From the IMG/VR virus record IMGVR_UViG_3300045988_042144, positions 1 through 43,890 of that record: DNA of 43,890 nucleotides; one strand, written 5' to 3'. Source of the stretch: a virus. Of this stretch, positions 1 through 43,890 are shown piece by piece; the first letter of the stretch is position 1; every line of letters starts with the position of its first letter. The position numbers were made by a program, and so were the translations under genes. The notes under the pieces are model-generated. The model was not told where the DNA came from. It worked only from the letters and a program-made list of their open reading frames with translations, and searched no databases.

Positions 1-102
1 ATCTTTTTTGCGTTGCTCCTCCATGCAGTCCGGGCAATATTTTTGCATCCCACTGTTGAGGACGTAAGGTTTTCCGCACGCCTCACAGATATACGTCCTT
101 CC
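1..102. repeat. Terminal overlap: nt 1-102 identical to nt 43789-43890, consistent with a circular or circularly permuted molecule of about 43,788 bp
   Basis: Direct comparison of the first and last 102 nt; a minus-strand ORF is in frame across the junction. Confidence 0.85.
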
Positions 103-366
103 AAGCTCCCGCGCGTGCCCCGCAGCCTTGGCTTGCTGGTGCAGCCGCGCTCTCTCTAGGTCGCGCTCACGCTTGCAGTCCGGGCATCTCTTGGCACTGG
201 GCCCGCCGATAAATTTCCGACCGCACTCGGTGCAAATGCGTTCAACTTTTTTGCCCTTGTGGATTGCTTTTTGCTGGCACTCGTCGCAAAGTTTTTGATA
301 CCGAGTAGGGTGCGGGATTGGGGTCCCGCACTCTCGGCAAATAACGTTGGCTCTGATCTCAGGCAT
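1..366 (-). CDS. 5' part (N-terminal 122 aa) of a ~390-aa multi-zinc-ribbon protein; the ORF runs off the left edge and continues at 43788..42982
   Basis: Start codon complement at 364-366 with GGAGGTG RBS upstream (minus strand); hand translation MPEIRANVICRECG...CDEC...CTECG...CPDC...CEACG...MQKYCPDCMEEQRKKD; last 16 codons identical to the start of ORF 42982..43836. Confidence 0.6.
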   Translation of the reverse strand, partial: MPEIRANVICRECGTPIPHPTRYQKLCDECQQKAIHKGKKVERICTECGRKFIGGPSAKRCPDCKRERDLERARLHQQAKAAGHARELGRTYICEACGKPYVLNSGMQKYCPDCMEEQRKKD

Positions 367-1096
367 TCGGCACCTCCGTTGGCTGGAGGTATTCGCCGCC
401 CAGCGTGCAGCCTGTGCCGATTGTGCAGTCGGCACCAAGCGTACACCAGTCATCGAGCGTGCAGCGGTCACAGAGACTGCAACCATCGCCGAGATCGCAA
501 CTGCAGCCTAGCTCACAACCGCAGCCCAGCTCGCATCGATCTCCCAGCTTGCAATCGTTGCCCAGCTCGCACTCAAGACCCAGCACGCACCCGTCACCGA
601 GTTCGCACGCACGACCGAGGCTGCACCAGTCTCCCAGCTTGCACTCATCCCCCAGCACGCACCTGTCGCCCAACACGCAGCGCTCGCCGAACTCGCAGTG
701 GTCACCAAATTCGCAGGCATCGCCAAACTCGCACTCGCGGCTCATCGAGCATCCGTCTCCAAACTCACAGCAGTCGCCGATCTTGCACTCTGGGAGCAGG
801 GTGCAGTAGCTTCCGAGCTTGCATCCTTCGCCGAGCTCACAGCGGTAGCCAAGCTGGCAGCCGTTTCCGATCACGCACTCATTCCCCAGCTTGCAGTAGC
901 TGCCCAGCTGGCATCTGTCGCCCAGATTCGCCCCGTCGCCCAGCTCACAAAGACGGCCGAAGGCCACCATGTGTGTGCCGTGAAAGTCGATCTCCGTGCA
1001 GTCAGTGCCGTCCGGGACGACCAGCTGGCCTATCCCATTGCGCTTCAGCGCGTCAAACTCGGCCTGCGTCATCTTGGTCCTAGTGATTTTTTCCAT
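359..1096 (-). CDS. Cys-rich hexapeptide-repeat protein: about 32 tandem LGxxCx units after a ~45-aa N-terminal domain; probable left-handed beta-helix; function unknown
   Basis: ORF track protein shows strict 6-residue periodicity (LGDRCQ LGSYCK LGNECV ...); AGGAGG RBS; paralogue of 40110..40814. Confidence 0.7.
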   Translation of the reverse strand: MEKITRTKMTQAEFDALKRNGIGQLVVPDGTDCTEIDFHGTHMVAFGRLCELGDGANLGDRCQLGSYCKLGNECVIGNGCQLGYRCELGEGCKLGSYCTLLPECKIGDCCEFGDGCSMSRECEFGDACEFGDHCEFGERCVLGDRCVLGDECKLGDWCSLGRACELGDGCVLGLECELGNDCKLGDRCELGCGCELGCSCDLGDGCSLCDRCTLDDWCTLGADCTIGTGCTLGGEYLQPTEVPNA

Positions 1097-1131
1097 TTTT
1101 TTGTCCTCCTTGATTTGTTGGTGGTGTGTGT
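1094..1131 (-). repeat. 38-nt translation-initiation leader, copy A (CATTTTTTTGTCCTCCTTGATTTGTTGGTGGTGTGTGT on the plus strand), filling the whole intergenic gap
   Basis: 37/38 identity with copy B at 1975-2012; contains AGGAGG and a CA-rich tract on the coding (minus) strand. Confidence 0.7.
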
Positions 1132-1520
1132 TACTCTTCGGATCGCGCGGCGGTGATCCGTGCGAGCTGGTCGGTCAGGACAGCGTATCCCAGCAGCATC
1201 TGGGTGTAGCTCGGGGCCTCACGGGCCTCACGAGTCTCCGAGCTGTCACGCTCCCAGTTCTCCACGCTCCGGCGCGGGATGCCGTAGGCGGCTGAAAAGT
1301 TGACCTGGGACATCCCGGTGATGCTGCGGATCGCGGCGATGCCGCCGTGCGACATGGTGTAGATCGCGTCCAGCACGCGGATGATGGAGGAGGTGTCATC
1401 CTCCCCGAATTCATCCATCCAGCCCTGCCAGCCGCGCTCGGCGATGTACAGGTCGTGCTGCTCGGGAGCGTACTCCTGAGCCGAGAACCAGATGCTGCGG
1501 AAGTCGTTGTAGGTGATCAT
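1131..1520 (-). CDS. 130-aa hypothetical protein with a C-terminal HTH-like segment (ITGMSQVNFSAAYGIPRRSVENWE)
   Basis: Internal ATG at residue 65 of ORF 1131..1712 preceded by TAAGGAGG; a 13-nt gap separates it from the upstream gene, suggesting coupling. Confidence 0.55.
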   Translation of the reverse strand: MITYNDFRSIWFSAQEYAPEQHDLYIAERGWQGWMDEFGEDDTSSIIRVLDAIYTMSHGGIAAIRSITGMSQVNFSAAYGIPRRSVENWERDSSETREAREAPSYTQMLLGYAVLTDQLARITAARSEE

Positions 1521-1533
1521 GCTGTTGTCCTCC

Positions 1534-1977
1534 TTAGTCACACTTGATGTAGTAGGTGATGTAGGCGTAGGTGGTGGTGTCCCAACGGGGAGAGCGCACG
1601 ACGTAACCTTCGCCGAATTTTCCGCGATACGGCTCAACGATGGGGCCGTTGACGCGGGAGACGTAACCACGGTAGCTGGCGGTGTGATGCAGATAGTAGT
1701 CAGGACTCGCATCCAGCTCCTCGACGGTCATCGCCGGGAATGTGTCGCTGATGTCGACGGCGCGGAACCCGGTGTTGTGGTACCACTCCGCAACCTTTTC
1801 CCAGTCGCTGGTGGCGGTGCGTCCGGCAGCCTGCTCGCAGCGGATGACGCTGCCGTCAGCCTTGACCTGGTAGCGGTACGCGCCGATGCGGAAATCGGTC
1901 TCGCCGTCGGCGGCGTGGTTGGTGATGGAGCGGATGGTGGAGTTGTTGATCATGGGGATGCGGTTGATTTTGAACAT
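1534..1977 (-). CDS. 147-aa hypothetical protein, first gene of the leftward cassette
   Basis: ORF with AAGGAGG RBS immediately downstream of a consensus promoter; no family recognised. Confidence 0.6.
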   Translation of the reverse strand: MFKINRIPMINNSTIRSITNHAADGETDFRIGAYRYQVKADGSVIRCEQAAGRTATSDWEKVAEWYHNTGFRAVDISDTFPAMTVEELDASPDYYLHHTASYRGYVSRVNGPIVEPYRGKFGEGYVVRSPRWDTTTYAYITYYIKCD

Positions 1978-2012
1978 TTTTTTGTCCTCCTTGACTTGTT
2001 GGTGGTGTGTGT
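1975..2012 (-). repeat. 38-nt translation-initiation leader, copy B
   Basis: Near-identical to 1094-1131 (one mismatch). Confidence 0.7.
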
Positions 2013-2072
2013 GGTGGTTGCTATTTGATGGCTCGGGATTTTTTCTTTTCCTCTCTCCCTTACCTTGATTAC

Positions 2073-2101
2073 ATTATACCACCAAATGAGTGGTATATCA
2101 A
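2073..2101 (-). promoter_or_regulatory. Near-consensus sigma-A promoter reading leftward (-35 TTGATA, 17-nt spacer, extended -10 TGgTATAAT) with an 8-bp perfect dyad TATACCAC-N7-GTGGTATA over the spacer and -10
   Basis: Reverse complement of 2073-2101 read directly; dyad at about 2075-2097. Confidence 0.6.
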
Positions 2102-2147
2102 CACCTTTTTGAAAAAAAGTGGTGAGATTTTCATTTTTTTTTTTGGC

Positions 2148-2765
2148 ATGATGGAGGCAGGAGGTGATATTGTGACGGAGCAGCAGGTGGATTGGGATCT
2201 GCTCAAGGGCGAGTATGCGACGCAGGACATCAGTCTGCGCCAGATCGCTGCCAAGTATCATCTCTCTCCCTATACAGTGCGCAGGAGGTCGGCTGCGGAC
2301 GGCTGGGTGGCCGCCCGCGAACAGTATCGCACAGAGCTGGCTCAAGAGATGTTGCAGCAAGCCAGCAAGGCAGCAGGGAGGAGCCGCGCGCAGAGTCTGA
2401 TCAAGCTCCAGCACGCCGCTGACCAGATGGTGGATGTGGTGGAGGCGTGTTTTCAGGACGCGACGCAATTTTATCGGTATATTGTAACCCAAAAACGAGG
2501 ATTTGATTCGGATGAGATCGAAAAGGAGTACGGCAAGCTAGACACCAAGGCCGTCAAAGACCTGACTGGCGCGATGCGCGATTTGGCTGCGGTGGTGCGT
2601 GACCTCTACGGTATTCCCACGCTGCCCCAGCAGTCGGCGATGGATCTGGCAGCTGAGCGTCTCAAGCTCGATCAGCGCAAGGCGGACGAGGCCGCTCACA
2701 AGGATGATGCGGCGGAGATCCGCGTTGTGATGGATGATCCCGCGCTGGAGGAGTACAGCTCATGA
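2148..2765 (+). CDS. terS: Terminase small subunit (HTH DNA-binding N-terminus)
   Basis: Position just upstream of and overlapping (ATGA) the large terminase; HTH-like ISLRQIAAKYHLSPYTVRRR; start could instead be GTG 2172 after GGAGGTGA. Confidence 0.6.
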   Translation: MMEAGGDIVTEQQVDWDLLKGEYATQDISLRQIAAKYHLSPYTVRRRSAADGWVAAREQYRTELAQEMLQQASKAAGRSRAQSLIKLQHAADQMVDVVEACFQDATQFYRYIVTQKRGFDSDEIEKEYGKLDTKAVKDLTGAMRDLAAVVRDLYGIPTLPQQSAMDLAAERLKLDQRKADEAAHKDDAAEIRVVMDDPALEEYSS

Positions 2766-4162
2766 TAGAGATGCATCTTCAGCCGCCGTCCGAGCGGCAG
2801 CGGCTGTTTCTGACCGCCCACACCAAGCACGTCGGCTATGGCGGCGCGCGCGGCGGCGGAAAGAGCTGGGCAGTGCGCACCAAGGCCAAGCTGCTGGCGC
2901 TGCGCTACCCCGGCATCCGTATCCTGATCGTGCGCCGGACGTACCCGGAGCTGATCAACAACCACATCCTGACCCTTCGGCAGGATCTGCTGGGCATCGC
3001 GGTCTATAATGACAAGGACAAACGGCTCAAATTTGCGAATGGCTCCTCCATCAACTTTAGCTACTGCGCGCGGGATCAGGACCTTGACCGCTTGCAGGGC
3101 GTGGAGTACGACGTGATTTTTTTAGACGAGGCGACGCAGCTGTCCCAGCATCAGGTCGAGGTCATTGCCGCGTGTTTGCGCGGCGTGAACAACTACCCCA
3201 AGCGGATGTACTACACCTGCAACCCCGGCGGACAGGGGCACGCCTACTTCAAGCGCATTTTTATCGACCGCAAGTATCAGCCGGGCGAGGACCCGGAGGA
3301 TTACACATTTATTCAGGCGCTTGTGACGGACAACGCGGCGTTGATGGCCTCCCAGCCGGACTACATCAAGCAGCTGGAGGCTCTTCCGCCCAAGCTGCGC
3401 GAGGCGTGGCTGTATGGGCGATGGGATGTATTCGAGGGGCAGTTTTTCGAGGACTTCATCGATCCCGGCGACGGCGCGGAGATCGGAGAGGAGCAGCACA
3501 CCCACATCGTCAAGGCATTCGTGCCGCCCAAACACTGGCGGCGGTATCGGAGCTTTGACTTTGGCTACGCCAAGCCGTTTTCGGTGGGCTGGTGGGCGGT
3601 GGATGAGGATGGTGTGATGTACCGCATCTTGGAGCTGTACGGCTGCACGGAGACTCCCAACGAGGGCGTTAAGTGGACCCCTGACAAGATATTTGATGAG
3701 ATTCGGCGCATCGAGCGGGAGCACCCGTACCTGAGAGGCTGCAAGGTGGACGGCGTTGCAGACCCCTCCATCTGGGACTCTTCGCGGGGTGTGAGCGTGG
3801 CGGATGTTGCCGCCAAGCACGGCGTGTATTTTGAGCCGGGGGACAACGCACGCATTCCCGGCTGGATGCAGGTGCATTACCGGCTGGCGTTTGACGAGGG
3901 CGGCAAGGCGATGATGTATGTATTTGAAGGCTGCAAGGCCTTCCGCCGCACGATCCCGCTGCTGTCCTACTCGGAGACCAAGCCGGAGGACTTGGACACC
4001 ACGCAGGAGGATCACGTCGCGGACGAGGTCAGATACTTCTGCATGCTCTCACCGCTGCCCCCGCGCGTGGTAACAGAGCCGATTGCGCCGCAGTACGACC
4101 CGCTCGACAGGGACAAGGACATCACCGAGGTCAAGGACAAGTACAGCATCTTCCGCTTGTGA
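2762..4162 (+). CDS. terL: Terminase large subunit (ATPase/nuclease)
   Basis: Walker A GYGGARGGGKS and Walker B DVIFLDEA; 466 aa; canonical position. Confidence 0.9.
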   Translation: MIEMHLQPPSERQRLFLTAHTKHVGYGGARGGGKSWAVRTKAKLLALRYPGIRILIVRRTYPELINNHILTLRQDLLGIAVYNDKDKRLKFANGSSINFSYCARDQDLDRLQGVEYDVIFLDEATQLSQHQVEVIAACLRGVNNYPKRMYYTCNPGGQGHAYFKRIFIDRKYQPGEDPEDYTFIQALVTDNAALMASQPDYIKQLEALPPKLREAWLYGRWDVFEGQFFEDFIDPGDGAEIGEEQHTHIVKAFVPPKHWRRYRSFDFGYAKPFSVGWWAVDEDGVMYRILELYGCTETPNEGVKWTPDKIFDEIRRIEREHPYLRGCKVDGVADPSIWDSSRGVSVADVAAKHGVYFEPGDNARIPGWMQVHYRLAFDEGGKAMMYVFEGCKAFRRTIPLLSYSETKPEDLDTTQEDHVADEVRYFCMLSPLPPRVVTEPIAPQYDPLDRDKDITEVKDKYSIFRL

Positions 4163-9538: not shown

Positions 9539-11257
9539 ATGGGATTTCTTCCGGAGCTTAACACCATCACACAGCAGCGCGAGGTGATCAGCGAGTTCGG
9601 CGGCTACAACCACAACCTGCGCATTGGCGGCTCGGAGTGGTACGACATGACCAATATGTCCTCCAGCCTGTTCCCGCTGATGACGCAGCGCGGAAAGCGG
9701 GCGCGCGTTCGGCAGCTCAACAGGGCCAACGGGCTGTTTGCCCACAACAGGCTCTGTTGGGTGGATGGCATGGATTTCTATTATGACGGCAAACCCAAGG
9801 GCAAAGTGACGGACAGCCGCAAACAGTTCATCGGCATGGGCGCGTACATCCTCATCTGGCCGGACAAGGTGGCCTACAACACCAACACCGACGAGTTCTT
9901 TGCGCTCGGCAACAAGACCGTGACGAGCGGCGAGGTGACGCTGTCCCTGTGCAAGCTGGACGGCTCGCCGTATGAGGGCTACAGTACCGGCGAGACTCCT
10001 CCCGCACAGCCCACGGACGGCGCGCTGTGGCTGGACACGTCCTCTGTTCCGCACACGCTCAAGGTCTACGCGACTTCGACGGCAATGTGGACCCCCGTGG
10101 CCACGACATACATCAAGATCGCGGCGACCGGCATCGGCAAAGGCTTTGCGGAATATGACGGCGTGAGCATCAGCGGCCTTGTCAGCGACCACAACGGCGA
10201 GTTCGTGCTCTACGGAGCCAAGGACGACTACATCATCATCACGGCGCTGATCGACGAGGTGACCAAGCAAACAGACCCCGTGACGGTGGAGAGAAAGATA
10301 CCCGACATGGACTATATGACGGAGTCGGAAAACCGCGTTTGGGGCTGCTCCAACGACAAGCACGAGGTCTACGCCTGCGCGCAGGGCGACCCCAAAAACT
10401 GGAACAAGTTCCTCGGCATCGCCAGCGATTCCTACGCCATGACCGTGGGCACGCCGGGAGACTTCACGGGCGCGGCGACGTACTTGGGCAGCGTGATCTT
10501 TTTCAAGGAAAATGTGCTGCACAAAATTCAGGGCAGCCGCCCCAGCAACTACCAGCTGACCAACACCAACTGCAGAGGCGTGGCCAAGGGAAGCGAAGGC
10601 TCGCTGGTGATCGTCAACGAGACGCTGTACTACAAGAGCCGCAACGATGTCTGCGTCTATCAGGGATCGCTGCCGACCTCCATCTCTGCGCCTCTGGGCA
10701 ACGTGCAGTACAACGATGCCAGCGCGGGCGCGATGAACGGCAAGTATTACATCTCCATGCGCGACCCGGAGGGGCTGGCGCACCTGTTTGTGTTTGACGA
10801 GGCGCGGCAGCTCTGGCACAAGGAGGACAATGCCGCAGCGATTGACTTCGCCGCGCTGGGCGGGGAGCTGTATTACATCGACGAGCGCGACAACTGCCTG
10901 TATTCGGTGGGCGGCAGCATAGGCGACTACGGCGATTCCAAGGCCAAGCCGGAGGACAAGGTCGAGTGGATGATCCAGTCCGGCGACATCGGGCTGGACA
11001 GCCCGGATGCCAAGTACATCTCCCGCTTGCAGCTGCGGATGAACGTGGAGGAGCGGTCGCTGGTGTGCGTGGATGTGCAGTATGACGACGAGGAGGGCTG
11101 GAGGGAGATGTACCGCATCAACCCCGCCGTCAAGCGCTCCTACTCCATCCCCATTGTGCCCAAGCGCTGCGACCATATGCGCATCCGTATGCACGGCTAC
11201 GGGCGCTGCGTGATCTATACGCTGACGCGCAACGTAGAGCAGGGAGGCGATCTGTAA
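9539..11257 (+). CDS. Large virion protein (572 aa), candidate tail hub/tubular protein (P22 gp10 / T7 gp12-like position)
   Basis: Internal ATG with GGAGG RBS in ORF 9464..11257; beta-rich YxxD-type repeats; function inferred from position only. Confidence 0.5.
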   Translation: MGFLPELNTITQQREVISEFGGYNHNLRIGGSEWYDMTNMSSSLFPLMTQRGKRARVRQLNRANGLFAHNRLCWVDGMDFYYDGKPKGKVTDSRKQFIGMGAYILIWPDKVAYNTNTDEFFALGNKTVTSGEVTLSLCKLDGSPYEGYSTGETPPAQPTDGALWLDTSSVPHTLKVYATSTAMWTPVATTYIKIAATGIGKGFAEYDGVSISGLVSDHNGEFVLYGAKDDYIIITALIDEVTKQTDPVTVERKIPDMDYMTESENRVWGCSNDKHEVYACAQGDPKNWNKFLGIASDSYAMTVGTPGDFTGAATYLGSVIFFKENVLHKIQGSRPSNYQLTNTNCRGVAKGSEGSLVIVNETLYYKSRNDVCVYQGSLPTSISAPLGNVQYNDASAGAMNGKYYISMRDPEGLAHLFVFDEARQLWHKEDNAAAIDFAALGGELYYIDERDNCLYSVGGSIGDYGDSKAKPEDKVEWMIQSGDIGLDSPDAKYISRLQLRMNVEERSLVCVDVQYDDEEGWREMYRINPAVKRSYSIPIVPKRCDHMRIRMHGYGRCVIYTLTRNVEQGGDL

Positions 11258-12966: not shown

Positions 12967-15900
12967 ATGGCCAAGGACAAAAAGAAACGGTCTGCCAATT
13001 ACATCGGTGCTGCGGATGAGCTAGTAAGAAAGGCCAAGGCTGATCCGGAAGGCACCGCCGCCTCTGTATCGGAGTGGGAATCCTCTCAGCGGGAACAAGC
13101 AATTCAGGATCGTGCCGCCCGCGAAATTGCTGCGAAGAATCTTCGCAGCTATATTCAGAGGCATCCCAGCTTTTCCAGAAGCCAAAAGGACGCGACTGCC
13201 GCGGTTATACTCAGAGAAACGACGGATATCAATGCCGCTCGCAGGCGTGAGAATATCGGCAAGGCTCAGCGCGAAATCCAAAGTCAGAACGAGTTGACCT
13301 CGAATCCATACGCGCAGGCAATGCGTAAAACTATGCTCAACCAAGAACGTGCAAGGCTGGACAGTCTGCCGGGGTTTTCTGTGTCTGAATTGGATGCGCT
13401 TGATGACGATGAGCGTAACCGTCGTATAACAGATTGGGCAAAAAGATCGGCTGCGGTGGATCGTGGCCTGGAAAAAACCAATCAGAGCATTGACGCTTAT
13501 AATGCTGCGATGGCTCGTCAGCGCAACGACACTGAACAGGAAGAGCTGAACAAGTATATCAACAATCCCACCGCGATGGTGGCGCGCATGACCATGCTCA
13601 ATCAGGAGCGCGCGAGGCTGGACAGCCTGCCGAGCATGACTCTTGATGAGGCCATGGACTATGGTGCGCGGTCGGCTGCGGTTGATCAAGGGCTGCGCCA
13701 GACAGAGCGGAACCTCTCTGCCTATGACAAGGCAATGGAGCGGTTGAAATTGCAGCGGTATGGCGATACGGTGCGTGAAAATGCGGATTTCACAGAGTAT
13801 TCCAGAAAAGGCGCGTCTGCCGAAAACCCGGATAACCAGTGGCAAGCAGTTTGGACGGGGAACAGAGTAAAGAACCCTGTCACTTATGCCAGAGCCCAAG
13901 CCGAAAAGCCGAAGAATGCTTTTGCACGATTCATGGACAATGCGTTCAATTACGGGCAAAGCGACAGTCCGGGCGATATACAGCGCCTTGCATCCTACAT
14001 GACGAGGGATGAGGTAAACGTATACAATTACCTCTGGGCAAAGGATCAGGAAAACGGCACCAGCGACGCATCCAAGTATTTTACGGATTTGACCAAGACA
14101 CTGTTCGAAAGACAATCCGAAGGATATGTCGAAGGCGCGCAAAAATGGTCTACCGAAAGCGCAGGGAATTCCGCGCTTGCCAGCGGAACGACCGTGCTCC
14201 GCTCCCCCGCGAATGGCGTGGCATATCTGGATGCCCTTGCTACCAAAGCGCAGGGGAAAAGAATCGACCCAAGCAGCGCCACGCAAGTGCAGGCTCGTGT
14301 CAACATCGGCGTTCGAGGTGCAGTGGCGAATGAAATTTCCGACACTGTTTCCAGTGGTACGGGTTCACAGTTTCTTGGGGACGCAACGAGCTTTTTGTAC
14401 CAGACCGGCCTCTCTATAGCGGACTCGGCGCTCAACACGGCCATAACTGGAGGAAACGCGCTTGCATCTTCTGCCCTCATGGGCGGAACTGCTGCCACCA
14501 GCGCGATGCAGGAAGCGTTGGATGGCGGCGCATCTGATACGCAGGCGCTCGCAGTTGGCGGGTTGGCAGGATTCTTCGAGGCGTTCTTCGAGCGGTTCTC
14601 GATTGAGAACTTTTTGAAAATGTCCAGCCCTGCGGCAAAGGGTTCTGCGATTATGAACCTCCTGCGGCAGATGGGCATTGAAGCGTCCGAGGAACTCGGA
14701 ACGGAAGTTGCCGATATAGTATCCGAGTATCTGGTGATGCGTGACATTTCCCAGTACAAGGATGCTACTCCGGGCGAGATCGCGCAGCAAATTGCACTGG
14801 CTGCACTTGGCGGAGCCTTGTCTGGCGGCGTGATGGGCGGAACCGGTCTGCTCGTTAACAATATCCAGTCGAATCAGATCGGTAAAGCTGCATCTCGTGT
14901 CGGCGTGAGCGACAGTGTGATTCTGGACGCGCTGAATTCGAACGATCCCAGCGCACGCGCCTTGGCACAGCAAATGCTCGACGGGGAAGCAAAGACGAAC
15001 TCTCAGAATGTTGGCAAACTGTACGCCAGCCTTGCCGAGAACGGCGAATACAGCAACTACGACACCGAGGCGATCCTGCGTGCCGCTGCCGAGGAGGCCG
15101 CAGCCGAAAAGCAGCAGAAGAAGAACAGCAAAACTGCCCAGCGGCAGACTGCCTCCCAGAACGCCCAGAATGCCCCTGAGAGCGTTTCCGCGCAGGAGCA
15201 GACCAATCGCACCAACACGGAAGAAAATGCCCAGCAGACCCGCAAGCAGCCCCGCGTGGACTATGCCACGAACGTGGTGGACAACGAAGAGACTGACATT
15301 ACGGGCATCCACTCCGTCGAGGACGGCACGGTGTATGTGCAGGCGGGAGATAACGTTGTCGCGCTGAACGACGTGGAGTTTGCCAACGCGGACATCGGCG
15401 AGTTGTATGAGCGCGCCGGGAAATATGGAACGGAGGCGGCGCAGCGTTTTGTGAAGGCGTATGACGGCGGCTCTGTGGAGCAGTATGCCAAGGGCTTTGA
15501 CGCGATGTACCGAGCCGCCAGAGACGGTGTTGCCTACGACACGGCGCTGCAGCAGAGTCTCTATGTGGAGAACTACTTAAGCGAGGATCAGCGGATGCAG
15601 GCGTATGCCGCCGGGCAGAGCACCTCTTCGCAGACCCAGACGCAGGTTGCAACCAATCAGGAACAGGTTGCAACTGAGCAGCAAGTTGAAAAACCCCAGA
15701 ACACTGAGGTTTCTGCCGCTGTGCAGACCGAAACAAAGGCGGCGCAGCAAGTTAAAAAGGCAGCCAAGCCCGGCCTGACGCGCAGCTATGCGCGCGCGGA
15801 GCTGACGAGCGAGCAGCGCAGCGCCATCAAGAAGAATCGCGGCCAGCTTCAGGTGGTGGACACGCTGGCCAAGAAGTACGGGCGCGAGGTCGTGCTGGTC

Positions 15901-18900
15901 GGCAGCCTGCAGGGCATGGAGATCAACGGTCAGACGGTCGAGCAGAGCGCCAACGGCGTGTTCGATCCTTCCAGCGGACGTATCTATATCGCAGCGGATG
16001 CGCAGGACGGCGCGTTTGCCTACGTCGCCATGCATGAGCTGGCGCACAGCGTCCGCGCCGCAAGCGAGAGCGATTACAACGCCCTTCAGACCACGGTGTT
16101 CGACGCGCTGACCAAGAACGGGCAGAATGTGGACGATCTGGTCAAATACCAGATGGACACGTTCGGCTACTCCGAAGACGTGGCGCGAGAGGAAGTCGTG
16201 GCTAACTCTGCCGCGACGGTGCTGACGGACGAGGAGTTCGTGCGCAATCTGTACAACAACGAGCACAGCCTGTTTGAGCAGATTCGCAAGTTCTTCAATG
16301 AACTGGCGGAGACCTTCAAACAGCTCACCCAGAGCGCGAGCTGGAGTCAGGACGCTGCGCTCACGCCGGAGAACGTGCGCGCCATCGCAGAGGTGTTCGA
16401 CCGGGTGGCGGCGGATACGGCATACGCAGAACGGGAAAATGCTGTGAATTCTCCCCAAAATAAGTTCAATTTTGTGGATTATTCCGAGCGAGAAAAACTT
16501 GGTTGGGAGGGAAGCAAAAGCATTGTTCTTTACGAGAATGATGCACAACTTGATAGGTTCGTGCAGACTGCCATTGAAGACAAATCAATTCATAAGAAAT
16601 TGTATTTTGGCAAAATCCCGTCAGAATTGAGCACTGAAGTGTTCGAAAAAACAGGAGTTAATGTTGATGGGTACAATTTTACGCTAAGAGCGGATGAGAT
16701 CAGAAAGATACTAAAAGACCATGGACAAAGGGCAAAGGAGGCTAACAGAGGGCAACAACCAATTACGCAGAAGGACTTCGCACGAATCCCAACGGTTGTT
16801 TTGAATCCGGATAATATAAAACTTTCTGATAAGCTCTTTGAGGGGAAACCTGTAATCCTTTTTGAAAAAGAAATAAATGGGAGAAAGACGGTAGTAGCCT
16901 ATGTAACAAAAAAACACATGGATTTGACTGTGCAAACCATGTATTTTGGTAAAGAAAAAGGGAGCAGACCCACTACGCCGAGTGATGCTTCAAGCATCGT
17001 CTTGCAAACGTCCGAAACGCTTAGTGGTAATGCTCCCATTACAACGGTAGCAGAAGCATCTGACGTTGTCAAGGGGGCGGTAGAAGATATCTCTGCCAAA
17101 ACCACAGACAATAATTCTGACAGCGGCATCAAGCTCTCCGTCAAGGACGTGGAGCCTGCCGACGCGAAGAAGCTGCAGCGGGAGAACGACAAGCTCAAGA
17201 GCGCGCTGGAGAACGCGCGCGCACAGCTGCGGCTGACGGATGGGATGCAGGTGGACGAGAAGGCGGTCACTAAGCTGGCGCGCGGCATCGTCACGGATTA
17301 CAGCAGCAAGGCCGACGTGACCAAGCTCTCAAGCGACCTGTACCAGCTCTTCAACTACGCCTCTCACAGCCCGGACACCGATGCAGCGTTTTCCGAACTG
17401 AACGACATCGGCATCGGTTTGGCACGACAGGTGATCGAGCAGTCGCAGCAGGTGGACACCTCTGTATCGGAGCAGTTCTCCGATCTCAAGGACTACCTGA
17501 AGAGCACGCCCATCCGGCTGACGGACGCGCAGAAGGAGCAGATCGCGGCCTCTTACGGCAGCTTGGCCAACTTCCGCAAGGAATATCGCGGCACGATCAA
17601 GATTTCAAACGACGGCGTTGCGTTGGACACGGTGATCGGCGAAATGGCAGAGTCCTATCCGTTTCTGTACGACGGCATTCAGGGCGGCGACCTCATCGAG
17701 ACGCTGACCAACGCAGCCGACGTGACTAAGCCGCAGATCGTCAATCCGTACTACATGGATATGGACGGCGCGGCGGCTGACCTGTGGCTGGAAATCCAGC
17801 AACGGTATACGGACACGCCCATGGTGCAGACCTATGCCGACAAGCAGAAGGCCAAGCTGGTCGAGCTGAAACAGCAGCAGAAGCAGCAGATCAAAGACCT
17901 GCGCCAGCAGGCAAAGGATGAAATGGACGTTGCGCTGCAAATCGCCAAGGAACGCGCCCAGCGGCAGCAGGACGCTGCTGTGCGCGGAGAGCGCCAGAAG
18001 CAGCAGGTCAAGACCGAAAAGCTCAAGGCAAAGAACCAGCAGCTCAGAACGGACATTGAGAACGAGCGCATTGCGAACGCTATCAACCGTGCGCTGGCAT
18101 CCAAGCGGTATGCTGCACTCAAGGAGCAACGCACCGCGGATCTCAAAACCCAGCGAGAGACCATCAAAACGCGGGAAAGAGTCGGCAGGTACAAAGACCG
18201 CATCAAGGCGGCGGCAATGACGCTGTCGGCATGGAACACGTCCCCCAGCGACAAGCGGTTTGTGCCGGAGGGGCTGCGCAGGGCGGTATCCGACTTTGTC
18301 AGCGCCATCGACATGGGCTTTAAGGAGGGCAGCAAGGTCTCCGAAAACTGGAAAGCGCGGATGCGGCAGATGCAGATCGCCGTGGAGAACGCGCAGAGGA
18401 GTTCGCCCGACGTGGGCATGGCGACGTGGGATCAGGAAACCGTGGACAACCTCGCCTCGCTGACCGCGCTGATCGAGGGCAACGACAACATCAAGAGCCT
18501 CCGCGACCTGAGTGAGCCACAGCTCAAGGCGCTGGCGGACGTGCTCAACGGCATCAAGCACGAGGTCATCAACGCCAACAAGATGTTTGTCAACGGCAGG
18601 CGCGAAAGCCTTTCCAAGGCGGCGGACAGCGAGATTGAGCGGATGGGCTCCCGGAAGACCGGCAAGGTCCGCAAGCAGCTCCAGAAGATCATGGACAGCA
18701 AGCTCATGCTGGGCAACACCAAGCCTATCTTCCTGATGGACAGCCTCGGCGGCGAGTACGAGCGGATCGGCAGAGACCTTTTCAACGGTCGTACCGAGGC
18801 GGCGTTCATTCTGCGGGATTCCAAGGACTTTCACTCCGGCCTGAAAAAGCGCTACCACGTCGACAAGTGGCTGGATCAGAAGGGCGATGTGCTGACGCTG

Positions 18901-21900
18901 AACACGGAGTTCGGCGACACGATCCGGTTGTCCAGAGGGCAGGCGCTCGACGTATACGAAATGTACCAGCGCGAACAGCAGGACACGCACACGCGGCATC
19001 TTGCCGACGGCGGCATCGTGTTTAAGACCGACGCGGACGGAAAGCGCGTGGACGATACCACCGCGCATCCGATCTCCGACGCGGACATCCAGAAGATCAC
19101 GAGCTGGCTGACGGACGAGCAGATCGCCTATGCGGACGCTCTGGTGCGGTACATGAGCACCACGCTGGCGGAGGCGGGCAACAAGACCTCGCTGACGCTC
19201 TCCGGCTACAAAAAGTACACCGGGCAGCACTATGTACCGTTCAACTCTGCGAGCGATTACATCGCCCACGGAGCCGGTCAGGCGGACGGCCAGCAGACCC
19301 CGCGCCTGAAGAACTGGGGACACGGCAAGAGCATCAACGCCTTTGCCAACAACCCCGTGGTGGTGGAGAGCATCGACCAGATATTCGGCAACCACGCCGA
19401 AGAGATGGCCAAGTATGCGGGGCTGGCGATCCCGCAGGACAACATGATCCGCTACCTCAATTACAAGCAGCCCAACGAGCAGGGCAAGCGGCAGATGTCG
19501 ATGAAGTCCGCGCTGCGCGCCGCATACGGAGATAACGTGGTGCGGTACATCGACCGCTTCAACGCAGATGTCGGCGGGAAGATCACGGCGGACGTGCGCG
19601 ATCAGGAGATGGGACCGATGCTCTCCAGATTCAAGAAGGGCGCAGTGCTTGCATCCATGTCCGTTGTGGTGCAGCAGCCCACCGCATACTTCCGCGCATT
19701 CTCCTTGATGAATCCCAAATACATGAGGCTCGGCTGGACGGGCGCGTATCAGGAGGCGCAGCAGTACGCTGGCACGGCGATCATCAAGGACATCGGTGGC
19801 TTTGATATGCAGACCAGCAGGGGCGCTGCGGACTGGATACTCGACAAAAAGCCGACCAACCCGATCGGATGGACGGATAAGGTGTTTGGGACGCTGCCGG
19901 AAAAGGCGGATGCGGTCACTTGGGGTGCGCTGTGGAACTCGGTCAAGGCTGAGATTCACGGTGAGACAGGGCTTGCCATGAACAGCGAGGCGCTGCTGAA
20001 GGCGGCGGGCAAGCGCTTTGACGAGGTGATCGACTTTACGCAGGTGTACGACTCGACGTTCTCCCGCTCGGACTGGATGCGCAGCAAGAGCAAGTTCGGC
20101 AGCATGGTCACCTCCTTCATGGCGGAGCCCACGACCAGCATGAATGTGTTCATGTACTCCCTGCTGCACATTAAGGACAAGAACTACTCCGGCAAGGTAC
20201 ACTTCATCCCCGCCACGCTGGCACTGGCGGCGACCACGATCATCAACGCGGCGGTCAAAGCGGTCGTCTACGCCGCACGCGACGATGACGATTACGAGAC
20301 CTTCTGGGAAAAGTATCTGGCGCAGCTCAAGAGCGCGCTGTTCGGCGACAAGATCGAAGGGCTGCCTGACTGGCTGGGAACGCCTCTGGGCTTTGTGGCC
20401 GGAAGCGACTTCTCCGTGTTTACCCAGATTCCGCTCGTATCCGATGTCATGGAGCTTGCACAGGGCTACGACGTAACCCGCACGGACATGAACGTGGTGG
20501 GCGATGTGGTCGACGCGGCGCTCGGCCTGTTCAACGAGAAGAAGACGGTCTACACAAAGGTCAAGAACCTGATCGGCGCGGTGGGCAACCTGACCGGGCT
20601 GCCGGTCAAGAACCTCTGGCGTGACGTGGAATCGGTCGTCCGTCTCTTCGGCGTGGAGATTCCCGCCGCGACCGGCGGCACGGCGGACGGCTATGCGAAG
20701 CTCTACGAGACCATCGCGTCTGGCGATGACAAACGCGCCGAGAAGCTGCGCGACACCCTCGAAGGAAAGGGCAAGAGCAGCAAGGACATCGACACGGGCG
20801 TGGCCAAGTCGCTGATGGAAAACGACGAGCGCATCCGGCAGGCCTACGAGATGAAGGCCGAGGGCGACATCGCCGGGCTGGAAGAGCTGCGCGCGGAACT
20901 GGCGGAGACCTACGGCGAGGAAGTCGTGGACAAGGCGATCAAGCTCTACGAAAACAGCCTCAACTCCGAACTCAAAAAGAAAGCCGAGGCGCTGCTGGAA
21001 AGCGAATCCCGCATTGCAGAGCTTTACGATTACAGCGAAAAGGGCGAGACACCCAACACCGCAAAGGAGGAAGCGCTGCGGGAGCAGTTGGAGAAGCAAT
21101 ACGGCAAAGAACTTGTCGAGAAGGCACTGTCCGTCTATTCGGAACAGTTTGACGAGCTGGATTCCGCCCTCTACACGGCGGACGACATGGAGATGGTCGG
21201 CACACTGGCCTTTGAGAGCGGAAAGACCGCAGACCTCAAGACTGTCGTGGCGGAGATGGAGAAGGACAGCAAGGCCAACGACCCGAAGAAATCCGTACTG
21301 GACAAGGCCGTAACCGCCTTCAAACCCTTGTACACGGAAGCACTTGACAAGGGCTATGCGCAGAAGGCGGCGCGGATCAAGAAGGTGCTGCTGGATGTCT
21401 ACGGCAGCTACGGCATGACGGAGGAGAAGATCGACAAGTGGCTGCCGGGAGAGAAGGCGGCTGCCCTCTATGAAGCGGTGGACGCGGGAGCCTCCGTGCA
21501 GAGCCTCAACAAGCTCATCAAGGACGCGAAAGCCGCCGGGCAGAAGGACTCCAACATCATCAACAGGATCAGCAGCACCTACAAGGAAAAGATGCTGGAG
21601 GCGTGGCAGAAGGGCGACACGAGAACCTACAACCAGATTGCCTCGCTGCTGAAGAACCTGAACCTCTACGACAGCAAGGGCAAGCTCTACTACACCGACG
21701 AGCGCTTCAAGGACTGGCAGATGGCGGAGAAATACGACGATCTGCCGGAGGCGGTCAGAGCCGGAGATGCCGGTGCGGTCAAACAGTACGTTGCCAACCT
21801 GAAAAAGGACGGCTATTCGGATGGCCAGATCACGCAGCGCGTCAGCACCAACGTGCATGACGAACTGGTGGAGGCGTACCTCAAGGGCGACATGAGCACC

Positions 21901-22017
21901 TACAACAAGCTCAAAGCCATGCTGCAGTCGCTCGACCTGCACGACAAGAGGGGCAATCAGTATTACCCGGACAGCAAGATCGCAAAGTGGATCAAGGACG
22001 CGCAGGAGAAAAAGTGA
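12967..22017 (+). CDS. Giant 3016-aa virion/ejection (internal core or polyvalent-type) protein candidate with an HExxH metallopeptidase-like motif, an AT-rich inserted domain and internal repeats
   Basis: Single uninterrupted ORF with GGAGG RBS; sits between virion accessory genes and tail fibres; HELAH at aa 1023-1027 (nt about 16033-16047); long coiled-coil stretches. Confidence 0.75.
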   Translation: MAKDKKKRSANYIGAADELVRKAKADPEGTAASVSEWESSQREQAIQDRAAREIAAKNLRSYIQRHPSFSRSQKDATAAVILRETTDINAARRRENIGKAQREIQSQNELTSNPYAQAMRKTMLNQERARLDSLPGFSVSELDALDDDERNRRITDWAKRSAAVDRGLEKTNQSIDAYNAAMARQRNDTEQEELNKYINNPTAMVARMTMLNQERARLDSLPSMTLDEAMDYGARSAAVDQGLRQTERNLSAYDKAMERLKLQRYGDTVRENADFTEYSRKGASAENPDNQWQAVWTGNRVKNPVTYARAQAEKPKNAFARFMDNAFNYGQSDSPGDIQRLASYMTRDEVNVYNYLWAKDQENGTSDASKYFTDLTKTLFERQSEGYVEGAQKWSTESAGNSALASGTTVLRSPANGVAYLDALATKAQGKRIDPSSATQVQARVNIGVRGAVANEISDTVSSGTGSQFLGDATSFLYQTGLSIADSALNTAITGGNALASSALMGGTAATSAMQEALDGGASDTQALAVGGLAGFFEAFFERFSIENFLKMSSPAAKGSAIMNLLRQMGIEASEELGTEVADIVSEYLVMRDISQYKDATPGEIAQQIALAALGGALSGGVMGGTGLLVNNIQSNQIGKAASRVGVSDSVILDALNSNDPSARALAQQMLDGEAKTNSQNVGKLYASLAENGEYSNYDTEAILRAAAEEAAAEKQQKKNSKTAQRQTASQNAQNAPESVSAQEQTNRTNTEENAQQTRKQPRVDYATNVVDNEETDITGIHSVEDGTVYVQAGDNVVALNDVEFANADIGELYERAGKYGTEAAQRFVKAYDGGSVEQYAKGFDAMYRAARDGVAYDTALQQSLYVENYLSEDQRMQAYAAGQSTSSQTQTQVATNQEQVATEQQVEKPQNTEVSAAVQTETKAAQQVKKAAKPGLTRSYARAELTSEQRSAIKKNRGQLQVVDTLAKKYGREVVLVGSLQGMEINGQTVEQSANGVFDPSSGRIYIAADAQDGAFAYVAMHELAHSVRAASESDYNALQTTVFDALTKNGQNVDDLVKYQMDTFGYSEDVAREEVVANSAATVLTDEEFVRNLYNNEHSLFEQIRKFFNELAETFKQLTQSASWSQDAALTPENVRAIAEVFDRVAADTAYAERENAVNSPQNKFNFVDYSEREKLGWEGSKSIVLYENDAQLDRFVQTAIEDKSIHKKLYFGKIPSELSTEVFEKTGVNVDGYNFTLRADEIRKILKDHGQRAKEANRGQQPITQKDFARIPTVVLNPDNIKLSDKLFEGKPVILFEKEINGRKTVVAYVTKKHMDLTVQTMYFGKEKGSRPTTPSDASSIVLQTSETLSGNAPITTVAEASDVVKGAVEDISAKTTDNNSDSGIKLSVKDVEPADAKKLQRENDKLKSALENARAQLRLTDGMQVDEKAVTKLARGIVTDYSSKADVTKLSSDLYQLFNYASHSPDTDAAFSELNDIGIGLARQVIEQSQQVDTSVSEQFSDLKDYLKSTPIRLTDAQKEQIAASYGSLANFRKEYRGTIKISNDGVALDTVIGEMAESYPFLYDGIQGGDLIETLTNAADVTKPQIVNPYYMDMDGAAADLWLEIQQRYTDTPMVQTYADKQKAKLVELKQQQKQQIKDLRQQAKDEMDVALQIAKERAQRQQDAAVRGERQKQQVKTEKLKAKNQQLRTDIENERIANAINRALASKRYAALKEQRTADLKTQRETIKTRERVGRYKDRIKAAAMTLSAWNTSPSDKRFVPEGLRRAVSDFVSAIDMGFKEGSKVSENWKARMRQMQIAVENAQRSSPDVGMATWDQETVDNLASLTALIEGNDNIKSLRDLSEPQLKALADVLNGIKHEVINANKMFVNGRRESLSKAADSEIERMGSRKTGKVRKQLQKIMDSKLMLGNTKPIFLMDSLGGEYERIGRDLFNGRTEAAFILRDSKDFHSGLKKRYHVDKWLDQKGDVLTLNTEFGDTIRLSRGQALDVYEMYQREQQDTHTRHLADGGIVFKTDADGKRVDDTTAHPISDADIQKITSWLTDEQIAYADALVRYMSTTLAEAGNKTSLTLSGYKKYTGQHYVPFNSASDYIAHGAGQADGQQTPRLKNWGHGKSINAFANNPVVVESIDQIFGNHAEEMAKYAGLAIPQDNMIRYLNYKQPNEQGKRQMSMKSALRAAYGDNVVRYIDRFNADVGGKITADVRDQEMGPMLSRFKKGAVLASMSVVVQQPTAYFRAFSLMNPKYMRLGWTGAYQEAQQYAGTAIIKDIGGFDMQTSRGAADWILDKKPTNPIGWTDKVFGTLPEKADAVTWGALWNSVKAEIHGETGLAMNSEALLKAAGKRFDEVIDFTQVYDSTFSRSDWMRSKSKFGSMVTSFMAEPTTSMNVFMYSLLHIKDKNYSGKVHFIPATLALAATTIINAAVKAVVYAARDDDDYETFWEKYLAQLKSALFGDKIEGLPDWLGTPLGFVAGSDFSVFTQIPLVSDVMELAQGYDVTRTDMNVVGDVVDAALGLFNEKKTVYTKVKNLIGAVGNLTGLPVKNLWRDVESVVRLFGVEIPAATGGTADGYAKLYETIASGDDKRAEKLRDTLEGKGKSSKDIDTGVAKSLMENDERIRQAYEMKAEGDIAGLEELRAELAETYGEEVVDKAIKLYENSLNSELKKKAEALLESESRIAELYDYSEKGETPNTAKEEALREQLEKQYGKELVEKALSVYSEQFDELDSALYTADDMEMVGTLAFESGKTADLKTVVAEMEKDSKANDPKKSVLDKAVTAFKPLYTEALDKGYAQKAARIKKVLLDVYGSYGMTEEKIDKWLPGEKAAALYEAVDAGASVQSLNKLIKDAKAAGQKDSNIINRISSTYKEKMLEAWQKGDTRTYNQIASLLKNLNLYDSKGKLYYTDERFKDWQMAEKYDDLPEAVRAGDAGAVKQYVANLKKDGYSDGQITQRVSTNVHDELVEAYLKGDMSTYNKLKAMLQSLDLHDKRGNQYYPDSKIAKWIKDAQEKK

Positions 22018-31104: not shown

Positions 31105-31372
31105 GTTTTGACGACAGTTTGACGACATTTTACACCCTTTTACAGCTTGTTACACCTGCTGTGTAGCGCACGAAATGCCTGAATTATCGACTTTTTCGGC
31201 ATTTCTTAAAGTCAGCAGATAAGTTTCAGGTACTAGTGAAGATCCCTTCATGCAGGTTCAAGTCCTGTTTCTCGCACCATCGAAAAATCCCTTGATTCAG
31301 GCAAAAACTTGAGTTAAGGGATTTTTTGTGTTCGTTATGAAGGTATAACTTGACGACACTTTGACGACACTT
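31105..31372. other. attP-like region: tRNA 3'-end fragment (about 31240-31279, T-arm GCAGGTTCAAGTCCTGT plus acceptor 3' strand TTCTCGC-A-CCA) flanked by arm-type direct repeats TTGACGACA-N-TTTGACGACA at 31108-31127 and 31350-31369
   Basis: Sequence read directly; adjacent to the integrase 3' end; no 5' half of a tRNA is present. Confidence 0.5.
31281..31330. terminator. Bidirectional terminator between the late operon end and the integrase 3' end
   Basis: AAATCCCTTGATTCAGG / CTTGAGTTAAGGGATTT imperfect inverted repeat flanked by an A-run and a T-run. Confidence 0.55.
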
Positions 31373-32582: not shown

Positions 32583-32620
32583 CCCCTCAGACGTTGCGGG
32601 TCTGAGGGGAACTTTTTTTT
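32583..32620 (+). terminator. Rho-independent terminator (plus-strand polarity) between int and the XRE-TM gene
   Basis: CCCCTCAGA-CGTTGCGGG-TCTGAGGGG followed by T8. Confidence 0.65.
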
Positions 32621-42570: not shown

Positions 42571-42792
42571 ATGCCCATCAACACGACGGGGAGCGCCAAC
42601 GCGATCTGCCCGTTTTACCTGCGGGAATCGACCAAGTCTATCTCCTGTGAGGGGTTCGCGGGGGAGGCCTGCCTGATCCGATTTGACTCTGCCGGAGCCC
42701 GCCGAACGTGGGCGCTGGACCACTGCGAGAGGTACGACTACGGGGAGAGATGCCCCTACGCAAAAATGATGGAAAAATTGTACGAAAATTGA
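42571..42792 (+). CDS. Small Cys-rich hypothetical protein (zinc-finger-like)
   Basis: GGAGG RBS; CPFY...CEGFAGEAC...CERYDYGERCPY. Confidence 0.45.
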   Translation: MPINTTGSANAICPFYLRESTKSISCEGFAGEACLIRFDSAGARRTWALDHCERYDYGERCPYAKMMEKLYEN

Positions 42793-42914
42793 GAAATACC
42801 ACTACAATAGGCCGGGGTGATGTGATATAATAACGGTGCGAATAAAAGTCATCGCTTTGGAGAGTGTGACCGTCGGAACCAGGCTGACTGAGATCACGCC
42901 CCAGGAGGGGAAAA

Positions 42915-42984
42915 GAGCCACCCATTCGGCTGGGGTGGCTCTTTTTCTGTGTGAATAAGCCGCCACACATGGGGCGGCTTATCA
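42915..42984. terminator. Bidirectional terminator region between convergent units: hairpin 1 GAGCCACCC-ATTCGGCT-GGGTGGCTC plus T5 (plus-strand polarity); hairpin 2 ATAAGCCGCC-ACACATGG-GGCGGCTTAT abutting the stop of the minus-strand gene
   Basis: Read directly. Confidence 0.7.
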
Positions 42985-43890
42985 CTGATCTGTCTTTTGC
43001 GGCTCTTGCTCCGGCGTTGCTTCTTTTTTTTGTGCTTCGCGGGCGCGCTTATTTTGATATGCATTGGCTGCGTACTCTCTATACGCAATCTTGGCACACT
43101 TACGGCAATACTGCTGACTAGGAGTCTCTAGCACATAATCATTGCCGCAGCGCTTGCACGGATAGACCTCGCCTATATGGCGGCTGGCCTTCGGGCGCAT
43201 GCGTCTTGAGTATTCCAACGTCTGCTGGCGCTGGACCGCTATCTTGCATGCGGGGCAGTATTTTGCAATGCGATCTCCCATAAATTCGATACCGCACTTT
43301 TGACAAGTTTTTTTTACATCTCGGCGCGCGTGCTTCGGTAATTTTTCAGCCGCGGCCGCCAACGCCGCTATGTCTTTGTTTGCCATGTAGTCGCGGACCA
43401 GCTGCTGCAAGAGTTGTGATGCGGACATCCCATTAACAAGAGCCGCATTCGCAAACGACCTAGCCGCATCTACGGGCAATTTGCAACAGACTGCTTTGTG
43501 GGGTTGCACTAACTGATCGGTCGCTCCTGACGTCGAGAGCTCAGTCATCTGGCGTCTGGATTTTTGCGGATGCCCGGCGCCCTTTGTCGGGTGATAGTCC
43601 GGATCAGGATTACCCATTGACGCGTCGTATTGTTGCAACGCTCTTTTTTCCGCACATTCCGGGCTGCATGTAATCTCGCGCGTCCCCGGCTCGAGTATCT
43701 TACCGCAGATCACACATACTCTCATACGCGGGTATTTGGGATACTTGCCTTTATTGGCACGCATGTAGTCATTCACCTTTGCGAGGACATCTTTTTTGCG
43801 TTGCTCCTCCATGCAGTCCGGGCAATATTTTTGCATCCCACTGTTGAGGACGTAAGGTTTTCCGCACGCCTCACAGATATACGTCCTTCC
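42982..43890 (-). CDS. 3' part (C-terminal about 302 aa) of the multi-zinc-ribbon protein. It carries four more CxxC-(9-13)-CxxC ribbons and an RHH-like segment (KLPVDAARSFANAALVNGMSASQLLQQLVRDYM); the gene starts beyond the right edge, at window 366 in the circular frame
   Basis: ORF track 42982..43836 plus in-frame upstream codons to the window end that duplicate window nt 49-102. Confidence 0.6.
   Translation of the reverse strand, partial: GRTYICEACGKPYVLNSGMQKYCPDCMEEQRKKDVLAKVNDYMRANKGKYPKYPRMRVCVICGKILEPGTREITCSPECAEKRALQQYDASMGNPDPDYHPTKGAGHPQKSRRQMTELSTSGATDQLVQPHKAVCCKLPVDAARSFANAALVNGMSASQLLQQLVRDYMANKDIAALAAAAEKLPKHARRDVKKTCQKCGIEFMGDRIAKYCPACKIAVQRQQTLEYSRRMRPKASRHIGEVYPCKRCGNDYVLETPSQQYCRKCAKIAYREYAANAYQNKRAREAQKKEATPEQEPQKTDQ
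43789..43890. repeat. Right copy of the 102-nt terminal overlap
   Basis: Identical to nt 1-102. Confidence 0.85.

Follow-up and report, generated by a model that had tools for sequence, protein, structure and literature searches.

Why does a phage keep, immediately before its packaging genes, a cassette of four genes that points away from its structural genes? We addressed this question in the viral record IMGVR_UViG_3300045988_042144 of IMG/VR, of which positions 1 to 43,890 were analysed (the window, that is, the whole stretch of 43,890 nucleotides). The four minus-strand genes are termed here, in their order, A (147 aa), B (129 aa), C (245 aa) and D (390 aa). An initial annotation, made from the letters alone, had regarded them as a lysogen-expressed or defence module with a toxin-antitoxin-like pair. 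The reading that we somewhat favour is that of an autorepressed, modular cargo operon of the type known from anti-CRISPR (acr) and anti-CRISPR-associated (aca) genes, with a new regulator family. The regulatory part of this reading, in which protein B binds a promoter palindrome and represses the operon, is likely, while a counter-defence role for the cargo, proposed by analogy, is tentative.

Bases 1-102 are an exact copy of 43789-43890 (a terminal direct repeat of 102 nt), so the contig is circular or terminally redundant, with 43,788 unique base pairs. Since the contig is circular, genes can cross its ends, and gene D crosses the junction. The range 1-2105 initially assigned to the cassette therefore cuts it, as D occupies 1-366 plus 42982-43788. 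The elements are the following (coordinates, strand, element).

1..366, minus strand, gene D, 5' part, residues 1-122
359..1096, minus strand, gene C, 245 aa
1084..1131, no strand assigned, second copy of the 3' part of the leader with ribosome-binding site and first codons, 92% identical
1131..1520, minus strand, gene B, 129 aa (130 codons including the stop)
1534..1977, minus strand, gene A, 147 aa
1978..2066, minus strand, 5' leader of ~89 nt, purine-rich, then CA-rich, with the 3' end AAGGAGG
2073..2101, minus strand, sigma-A type promoter with TTGATA as -35 (2101-2096), a 17-nt spacer and TATAAT as -10 (2078-2073)
2075..2097, no strand assigned, putative palindromic operator TATACCAC-N7-GTGGTATA with perfect 8-bp arms
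42905..42977, no strand assigned, terminator region with two strong hairpins, folding z-score -6.9
42982..43788, minus strand, gene D, 3' part, residues 123-390
43789..43890, no strand assigned, assembly overlap, exact match to bases 1-102

Coordinates, own promoter, operator and terminator bear out the description of four leftward genes forming a self-contained accessory cassette directed away from the structural genes. The gap between A and B is exactly 13 nt and contains the ribosome-binding site GGAGGA, and the ATG of D overlaps the stop codon of C (ATGCCTGA). Thus, of the initially described pair of a 147-aa gene and a 130-aa helix-turn-helix (HTH) protein, the gap, the HTH and the length of A were correct, whereas B has 129 residues, the stop having been counted as the 130th codon. 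The promoter, originally noted as near-perfect (TTGATA-17-TGgTATAAT), indeed agrees with the sigma-A consensus at 11 of 12 positions and has the TG of an extended -10 element (TGgTATAAT, 2081-2073); related phages keep the same promoter, usually with TTGACA as the -35 hexamer. At the other end of the operon stand a 9-bp GC hairpin (~42949-42977) and a hairpin of 13 bp (~42905-42945) whose flanking A5 and U4 would permit termination in both directions, consistent with the bidirectional terminator proposed before. A terminator search in 1-2800 revealed none inside the cassette.

The perfect 8-bp arms of the promoter dyad were also recognised initially; its placement over the -10 and the spacer was incomplete, since the dyad covers the entire spacer and overlaps both the -35 and the -10 hexamers. 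It is unique in the window even when up to 3 mismatches are allowed (≤3; chance expectation 0.03 matches). The palindrome was also considered as an operator of the phage CI repressor, and this candidate was dropped because no second copy or half-site cluster was found elsewhere, the cI-cro intergenic region included.

Protein B comprises a helical N-domain and an XRE-type HTH (approximately residues 60-95), a fold that it has in common with Aca repressors and HigA-type antitoxins. It was modelled as six helices with a confidence score (pLDDT) of 82.7 and is probably dimeric. B matches phrog_25567, a family of unknown function (E 4e-22), and a profile search of the PDB gave 2ppx (E 2e-4). Similarity at the fold level extends to Aca1, Aca2, Aca7 and Aca10, and the HTH resembles those of HigA2, HipB, MqsA and PezA. 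Because B is the sole constant partner of the palindrome, and because a protein bound across the whole spacer would stand in the way of RNA polymerase, B is most likely an autorepressor of the operon, with the palindrome as its putative ligand.

The constancy of B became apparent from related loci. The promoter and the leader of ~90 nt recur almost base for base in phages from other gut metagenomes, where the cassette occupies either of two positions, divergent from the small terminase gene or between the lysis genes and the integrase. Behind promoter and palindrome we found the gene orders listed below, in which L numbers denote loci, A' is a protein of 186-187 aa sharing only the N-domain of A, LbH is a left-handed beta-helix protein, and further genes are given by the length of their product.

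Window: A-B-C-D
L001, L002: A-B-120aa-228aa(Zn)-38aa-D
L017, L018: A'-B
L009: A'-B-171aa
L023: A'-185aa-B
L004, L005: LbH-A'-185aa-B-...
L010-L013: 94aa-185aa-B-71aa...
L014-L016: 94aa-185aa-B-171aa

B is the only gene common to all of them (8/8), at 64-95% identity with the N-domain included. The genes before it vary and are either A, A', A' with the 185-aa protein, LbH with A' and the 185-aa protein, or the 94-aa with the 185-aa protein. In L017, L018 and L023 the cassette stops after B, with neither C nor D following.

To widen the sample, metagenome contigs were scanned with the pattern TTGAY-N3-CCACYCA-N-TGRGTGGTATAAT, which gave 104 operator sites. An open reading frame (ORF) matching the HTH profile of B lies downstream on the promoter strand at 81/104 sites, and 21 of the 23 sites lacking one have less than 1.5 kb of downstream sequence. 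The regulators at the scanned sites are of three kinds, namely HTH-only proteins (56-64 aa), B-like proteins (100-160 aa) and fusions of an HTH to an MNT nucleotidyltransferase, and all of them share IP[LRI]R[TS][IVL]ENWE. Furthermore, operator variants track the recognition helix of B in three classes: B with the helix GIPRRSVENWERD stands behind ACCACYCA-type sites, B with GIPYRSVQNWEAG behind TAGCACCGA-T-TCGGTGCTA, and B with GAPRRSIQNWEYD behind a third operator variant.

Homologous promoter-leader scaffolds were also found to carry different palindromes at the same position, each with its own HTH or zinc-ribbon/ribbon-helix-helix-like (RHH-like) gene:

L024: ATATACGATTAATCGTATAT, two copies
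L055: TATACGC-N4-GCGTATA
L072, L137: GTTGCGCAAC
L020: CATACTG-N4-CAGTATG, two copies
L037: ACGCA-A-TGCGT, with the shared promoter scaffold, a different leader and a 68-aa HTH protein

L024 consists of two tandem units, in each of which a gene for acidic cargo is joined by one for a zinc-ribbon protein that includes an RHH-like part; the zinc-ribbon protein of the second unit is a 97% homologue of D. The L055 and L072/L137 loci also encode D-like zinc-ribbon proteins. The operator of this D type (ATATACGATTAATCGTATAT) was sought in the window and not found. In L020, the first gene of the operon is a stand-alone member of the family of the A C-domain and the last is a full-length B homologue (hhalign probability 97.3%, E 2.5e-11). 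The scaffold itself, AAAAGGTGTTGAC-N18-TATAAT, was rejected as a specific marker, as it generically surrounds strong promoters and many of its spacers are not palindromic.

One such spacer deserves separate mention. In at least 20 IMG/VR viral contigs, including L034, L049, L057, L074, L083, L093, L097, L109 and L115, this scaffold promoter has AAATTAGAGAACACTCTA as its spacer, which is not palindromic, together with a conserved leader that contains a hairpin of the form GGTTAGGG...CCTAA; this is a distinct and widespread conserved promoter-leader element.

The leader of the window is nearly identical base for base to those of L001, L004, L009, L017 and L023. It has a weak 5'-proximal hairpin, GGGA...UCCC, and is mostly unstructured (folding z-score -1.4); a riboswitch-like leader was rejected because it folds no better than shuffled sequence, and Rfam gave no match to promoter and leader. 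A short 5' hairpin a few bases past the predicted start is present in the window (2040-2066, minus strand), in L024 (1770-1800 and 3285-3315), L055, L072 and many of L147-L250. Its stems differ from locus to locus and stay complementary (GGGA/UCCC, GGGGA/UCCCC, GGGGC/GCCCC, GAGG/CCUC and GGAGC/GCUCC), and it could serve as a 5' stabiliser of the mRNA or as an RNA site for a regulator.

A 48-nt repeat within the operon bears on how the cassette was assembled. Its copies at 1965-2012 and 1084-1131 are spaced by 881 nt (0 chance matches expected), precede A and C, respectively, and bracket the A-B pair exactly. An equivalent duplication of the leader follows B in L001-L003. In addition, tandem cassettes occur in L024 and L055, each L024 unit having its own promoter and palindrome, and in L004 the LbH gene stands immediately behind promoter and leader. 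Together with the tandem arrangement in L024 and the position of the LbH gene next to the promoter in L004, the repeat suggests that the operon of the window arose from fused A-B and C-D cassettes, of which the C-D cassette lost its promoter and kept the 3' end of its leader. In the sister phage L001 from Hadza gut, a TTGACA -35 hexamer is joined directly to the start codon of D (10180-10215, TTGACAATAGATGCCTGAG); a deletion before D has here removed the operator, -10, leader and cargo gene that are all present in L024.

We further analysed the proteins that accompany B. Exhaustive HMMER searching delimited two domains in A. The N-domain (approximately residues 10-66) is 68-77% identical to the N-termini of the A' proteins of sister phages. 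The C-domain (approximately residues 82-146) belongs to a widespread unnamed family, mostly of stand-alone phage proteins of ~65-75 aa, with at least 341 cluster representatives at E ≤0.001 (clusters at 50% identity) and the motif HHTA..RGYVSR...Y.GRFG.GY...P.WD[ST]T.Y...YYI. AlphaFold2 models it as one helix and a four-stranded antiparallel sheet with pLDDT >92. Neither A (Pfam, PHROGs, NCBIfam and PADLOC) nor ten members of its C-domain family could be assigned to a family, the latter family is covered by no model of Pfam or PHROGs, and its source labels are generic, such as 'hypothetical protein'; A as a single query against IMG/VR gave zero matches. The stand-alone C-domain genes of L019 and L021 have no called neighbour matching a Pfam HTH family, in L020 an HTH gene lies four genes downstream, and in the protein P0173 the C-domain is fused to two XRE HTH domains.

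Protein C is predicted from its sequence to be a hexapeptide-repeat left-handed beta-helix with internal cysteine ladders. It matches Pfam Hexapep over 7 stretches (E 2.8e-35, 119 bits against a cut-off of 27) and LbH_EIF2B (E 9e-19), and contains 31 uninterrupted repeats [L/I/F]-G-x-x-C-x in residues 52-237. Out of its 31 repeats, 29 have a cysteine at the small-residue position, the protein has 35 cysteines altogether and its isoelectric point (pI) is 4.25. In the left-handed beta-helix fold, the residue at this position points into the helix core, and the cysteines are therefore probably structural ladders and not metal ligands. C resembles the acyltransferases LpxA, LpxD, GlmU and NeuO in its [LIV]-G-x-x-[small]-x repeat and its significant Hexapep match, but differs from them in being strongly acidic and in lacking inserted loops and a nucleotidyltransferase or other partner domain. 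Its assignment as such an acyltransferase was rejected, as all NCBIfam matches fell under their cut-offs (the best, PRK00892, reached 92 bits against 207). The prophage-encoded NeuO is a precedent for left-handed beta-helix proteins carried by prophages as accessory ('moron') genes (PMC3046976). C itself belongs to the phage-only families phrog_5353 and phrog_2154, both of unknown function. In the early region of the window (40110-40814, plus strand) there is a second cysteine-rich hexapeptide-repeat gene, whose 234-aa product shares 52% identity with the N-terminal part of C and has a C-terminal domain, phrog_20532, that is absent from C; proteins of the same type occur in L004, L017 and L023. 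C looks like a truncated and expanded paralogue of this type.

Protein D (pI 9.4) contains six CxxC...CxxC zinc ribbons and a central RHH-like segment. Its scores against the double zinc ribbon families DZR and DZR_2 of Pfam lie right at the thresholds, and the RHH-like segment is weakly matched by phrog_7325 (E 0.17), while a related stand-alone protein of 69 aa matches ParG (E 0.025). D was not labelled an HNH endonuclease after phrog_1271, as the match is confined to the ribbon region (profile positions 155-259) and Pfam returned zinc-ribbon families only. Overall, no enzyme, toxin or membrane family was detected for A-D in Pfam, PHROGs, PADLOC and NCBIfam. The initial view that none of the four proteins belongs to a recognisable family thus holds for A, while C falls to Hexapep, D to DZR and DZR_2, and B matches its PHROG. 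Likewise, the H-x-T ... YY pattern pointed out in A is real but belongs to the small beta domain, and the ADP-ribosyltransferase link drawn from it (Arr, DarT, Tpt1/KptA) is unsupported, since the domain is modelled as a small helix with a four-stranded sheet and shows neither the fold nor the catalytic motif. The comparison with PADLOC, proposed for a defence module, gave noise only, namely single weak stretches to JetA (E 0.016), Csm6 (E 0.007) and PDC-S73 (E 0.048). The earlier interpretation as defence, toxin-antitoxin pair or ADP-ribosyltransferase is mostly unsupported.

How, then, might the operon work? Host RNA polymerase would use the near-consensus sigma-A promoter without phage factors, so that it may fire strongly on naive DNA, upon entry or induction. 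A dimer of B would then bind the spacer palindrome, block the polymerase and hold expression at a low level set by B, also in the lysogen. A, C and D would be exchangeable cargo, acting on the host early in infection, in counter-defence or takeover, and not as toxin or defence, by analogy to acr-aca operons. Aca2, a dimeric HTH autorepressor, recognises inverted repeats within the acr promoter and is made in lysogens too (PMC6765145). Operons regulated by Aca proteins contain many unannotated candidate anti-defence genes, and an Aca protein of the RHH type exists (PMC13551039). The window agrees with acr-aca operons (acrIF8-aca2 of phage ZF40; Aca1, Aca10, Aca14) in several features. A strong promoter contains an inverted repeat, a conserved small HTH gene lies in the operon behind varying cargo, and regulator and operator stay constant. 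Moreover, the phages are temperate, the cassettes occupy variable genome regions, and sister cassettes have an RHH-like regulator, as with the RHH-type Aca14 (PMC13551039). The cargo, small, unannotated, free of enzymatic or membrane signatures and often very acidic, has a profile typical of anti-defence proteins, which is no proof of such a role. Many cargo proteins are strongly acidic (C, pI 4.25; L024 cargo, 4.05-4.4).

Several points weigh against this reading. B lies outside the solved Aca families by sequence and has an extra N-terminal helical domain; a PDB search with its profile gave no Aca chain at E ≤1, Aca1, Aca2, Aca7 and Aca10 being among the chains, and the XRE fold is equally common to antitoxins. 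Aca genes are usually the last of their operon, whereas B is the second of four in the window. The operator-regulator classes are few and phylogenetically linked, and the operator of the window deviates at 1 position from the family consensus CCACYCA-N-TGRGTGG. A symmetric change in L023 was rejected as covariation, as the Y/R states of the two arms are independent over 45 distinct operators (Fisher p 0.76). In L211, L212 and L178 the operator class stands directly before fusions, 161-164 aa long, of a B-type HTH with an MNT-like domain (...GSYAKG...SDIDL...), a component of toxin-antitoxin type, which implies that the regulator/operator pair is a general device and not specific to counter-defence. 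As to the cargo, no protein matches a known Acr or other anti-defence protein or carries such an annotation in Pfam, PHROGs or NCBIfam. A, with a pI of 6.4, is not acidic, and the pI of ~4.1-4.4 found for the first ORF in most of 37 metagenomic architectures is based on crude ORF calls.

Other explanations have to be weighed against the same evidence. The pair A-B could be a type II toxin-antitoxin or abortive-infection system, with A as toxin, B as antitoxin and autorepressor, and C and D as passengers. As in HigBA, MqsRA and HipBA, two small genes are adjacent (here separated by 13 nt), the second of them encodes the HTH protein, which is the higBA order, the promoter contains a palindrome, and the HTH fold is similar to those of HigA2, HipB, MqsA and PezA. 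Fusions to an MNT nucleotidyltransferase domain also occur among relatives of the regulator. Here, however, the upstream partner is exchangeable: the gene before B is not conserved, while B, with its N-domain, remains 64-95% identical. Furthermore, no known toxin family or fold was detected for A, and its C-domain family consists mostly of stand-alone proteins of ~65 aa, for which an HTH gene was found in only one (L020) of the three contexts examined (L019, L020, L021). The toxin-antitoxin-like pairing proposed initially is thus improbable. A higher, though still low, probability goes to a lysogenic-conversion cassette, expressed from the prophage and serving superinfection exclusion or a change of host physiology instead of counter-defence. 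The phage is temperate, in other phages the module lies between lysis genes and integrase, the classic position of such genes, the promoter is independent of phage factors and a terminator closes the unit; an autorepressed promoter would also give steady low expression in the lysogen, as for Aca2 (PMC6765145). Expression in the lysogen and early expression are in fact not mutually exclusive. What speaks against it is that A-D have none of the membrane, surface or enzymatic domains typical of exclusion and conversion genes.

Very improbable is a role of B and D as developmental regulators that control the neighbouring late or packaging transcription, with A and C as accessories. It would account for the cassette abutting and diverging from the small-terminase gene, for the zinc ribbons and RHH-like segment of D and for the HTH of B. 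Yet L017, L018 and L023, whose packaging and structural genes are the same, do without D, in unrelated phages the module is also found behind the lysis genes, and the operator is unique in the window, so that no second target is visible. The autorepressed cargo operon thus remains our preferred reading.

The cassette is placed after the last of the rightward early genes and ahead of the packaging genes, which also run rightward; it adjoins and diverges from the small terminase gene (beginning at 2172, followed by the large terminase gene at 2762-4162, both rightward), and its region of the genome is variable across related phages. The phage is temperate, as it encodes a tyrosine integrase (31335-32486, minus strand) and a CI-like HTH repressor (32619-33176, minus strand), and the carrier is best explained as a temperate siphovirus-like phage of a gut Firmicute. 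A host search, in which GTDB genomes were scanned with the alignment of B, gave zero matches. Among deposited phage genomes no close DNA relative was found, the sole match (73.9%) being to the hexapeptide repeats.

Two further observations concern other parts of the window. A non-coding stretch of ~110 nt (42792-42905, plus strand) separates the last early gene from the bidirectional terminator and contains an extended -10-like element TGATATAAT (~42823-42831), so that a short terminator-ended transcript is possible; Rfam gave only sub-threshold matches to the terminator region and this adjoining stretch. In the structural region (12967-22017, plus strand), a 3016-aa ORF contains a PBECR3 domain (residues 1217-1331, E 2.8e-18). 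PBECR3, the phage Barnase-EndoU-ColicinE5/D-RelE-like nuclease 3, is a hallmark of large 'polyvalent' proteins, which have been proposed to be injected counter-defence factors.

The anti-defence genes of gut-Firmicute phages are, to our knowledge, largely unknown because they lack sequence similarity to those already characterised. It was mostly by looking beside a conserved regulator that the known anti-CRISPRs were discovered, and the present analysis provides such a handle in the regulator family B (phrog_25567 and its short relatives) and its probable operator, with more than 100 operator loci. It is doubtful, but worth stating, that the B-type HTH and the CCACYCA-N-TGRGTGG operator point to a large and so far undescribed group of Aca-like operons for counter-defence in gut-Firmicute phages. 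If this is true, new anti-defence classes would be represented by the multi-zinc-ribbon/RHH proteins, by the beta domain of ~65 aa with HHTA..RGYVSR..YYI and by the acidic beta-helix with cysteine ladders, which might be a rod-shaped mimic of nucleic acid or a decoy, and the operator could be used to search for further operons of this kind. The cassettes offer in any case three protein families without a function annotation in Pfam or PHROGs as candidates for testing, one of them with at least 341 clusters at 50% identity. Even if the cargo proves unrelated to counter-defence, the locus would still be a clean case of autorepressed cassettes shuffled between phages at a conserved leader.

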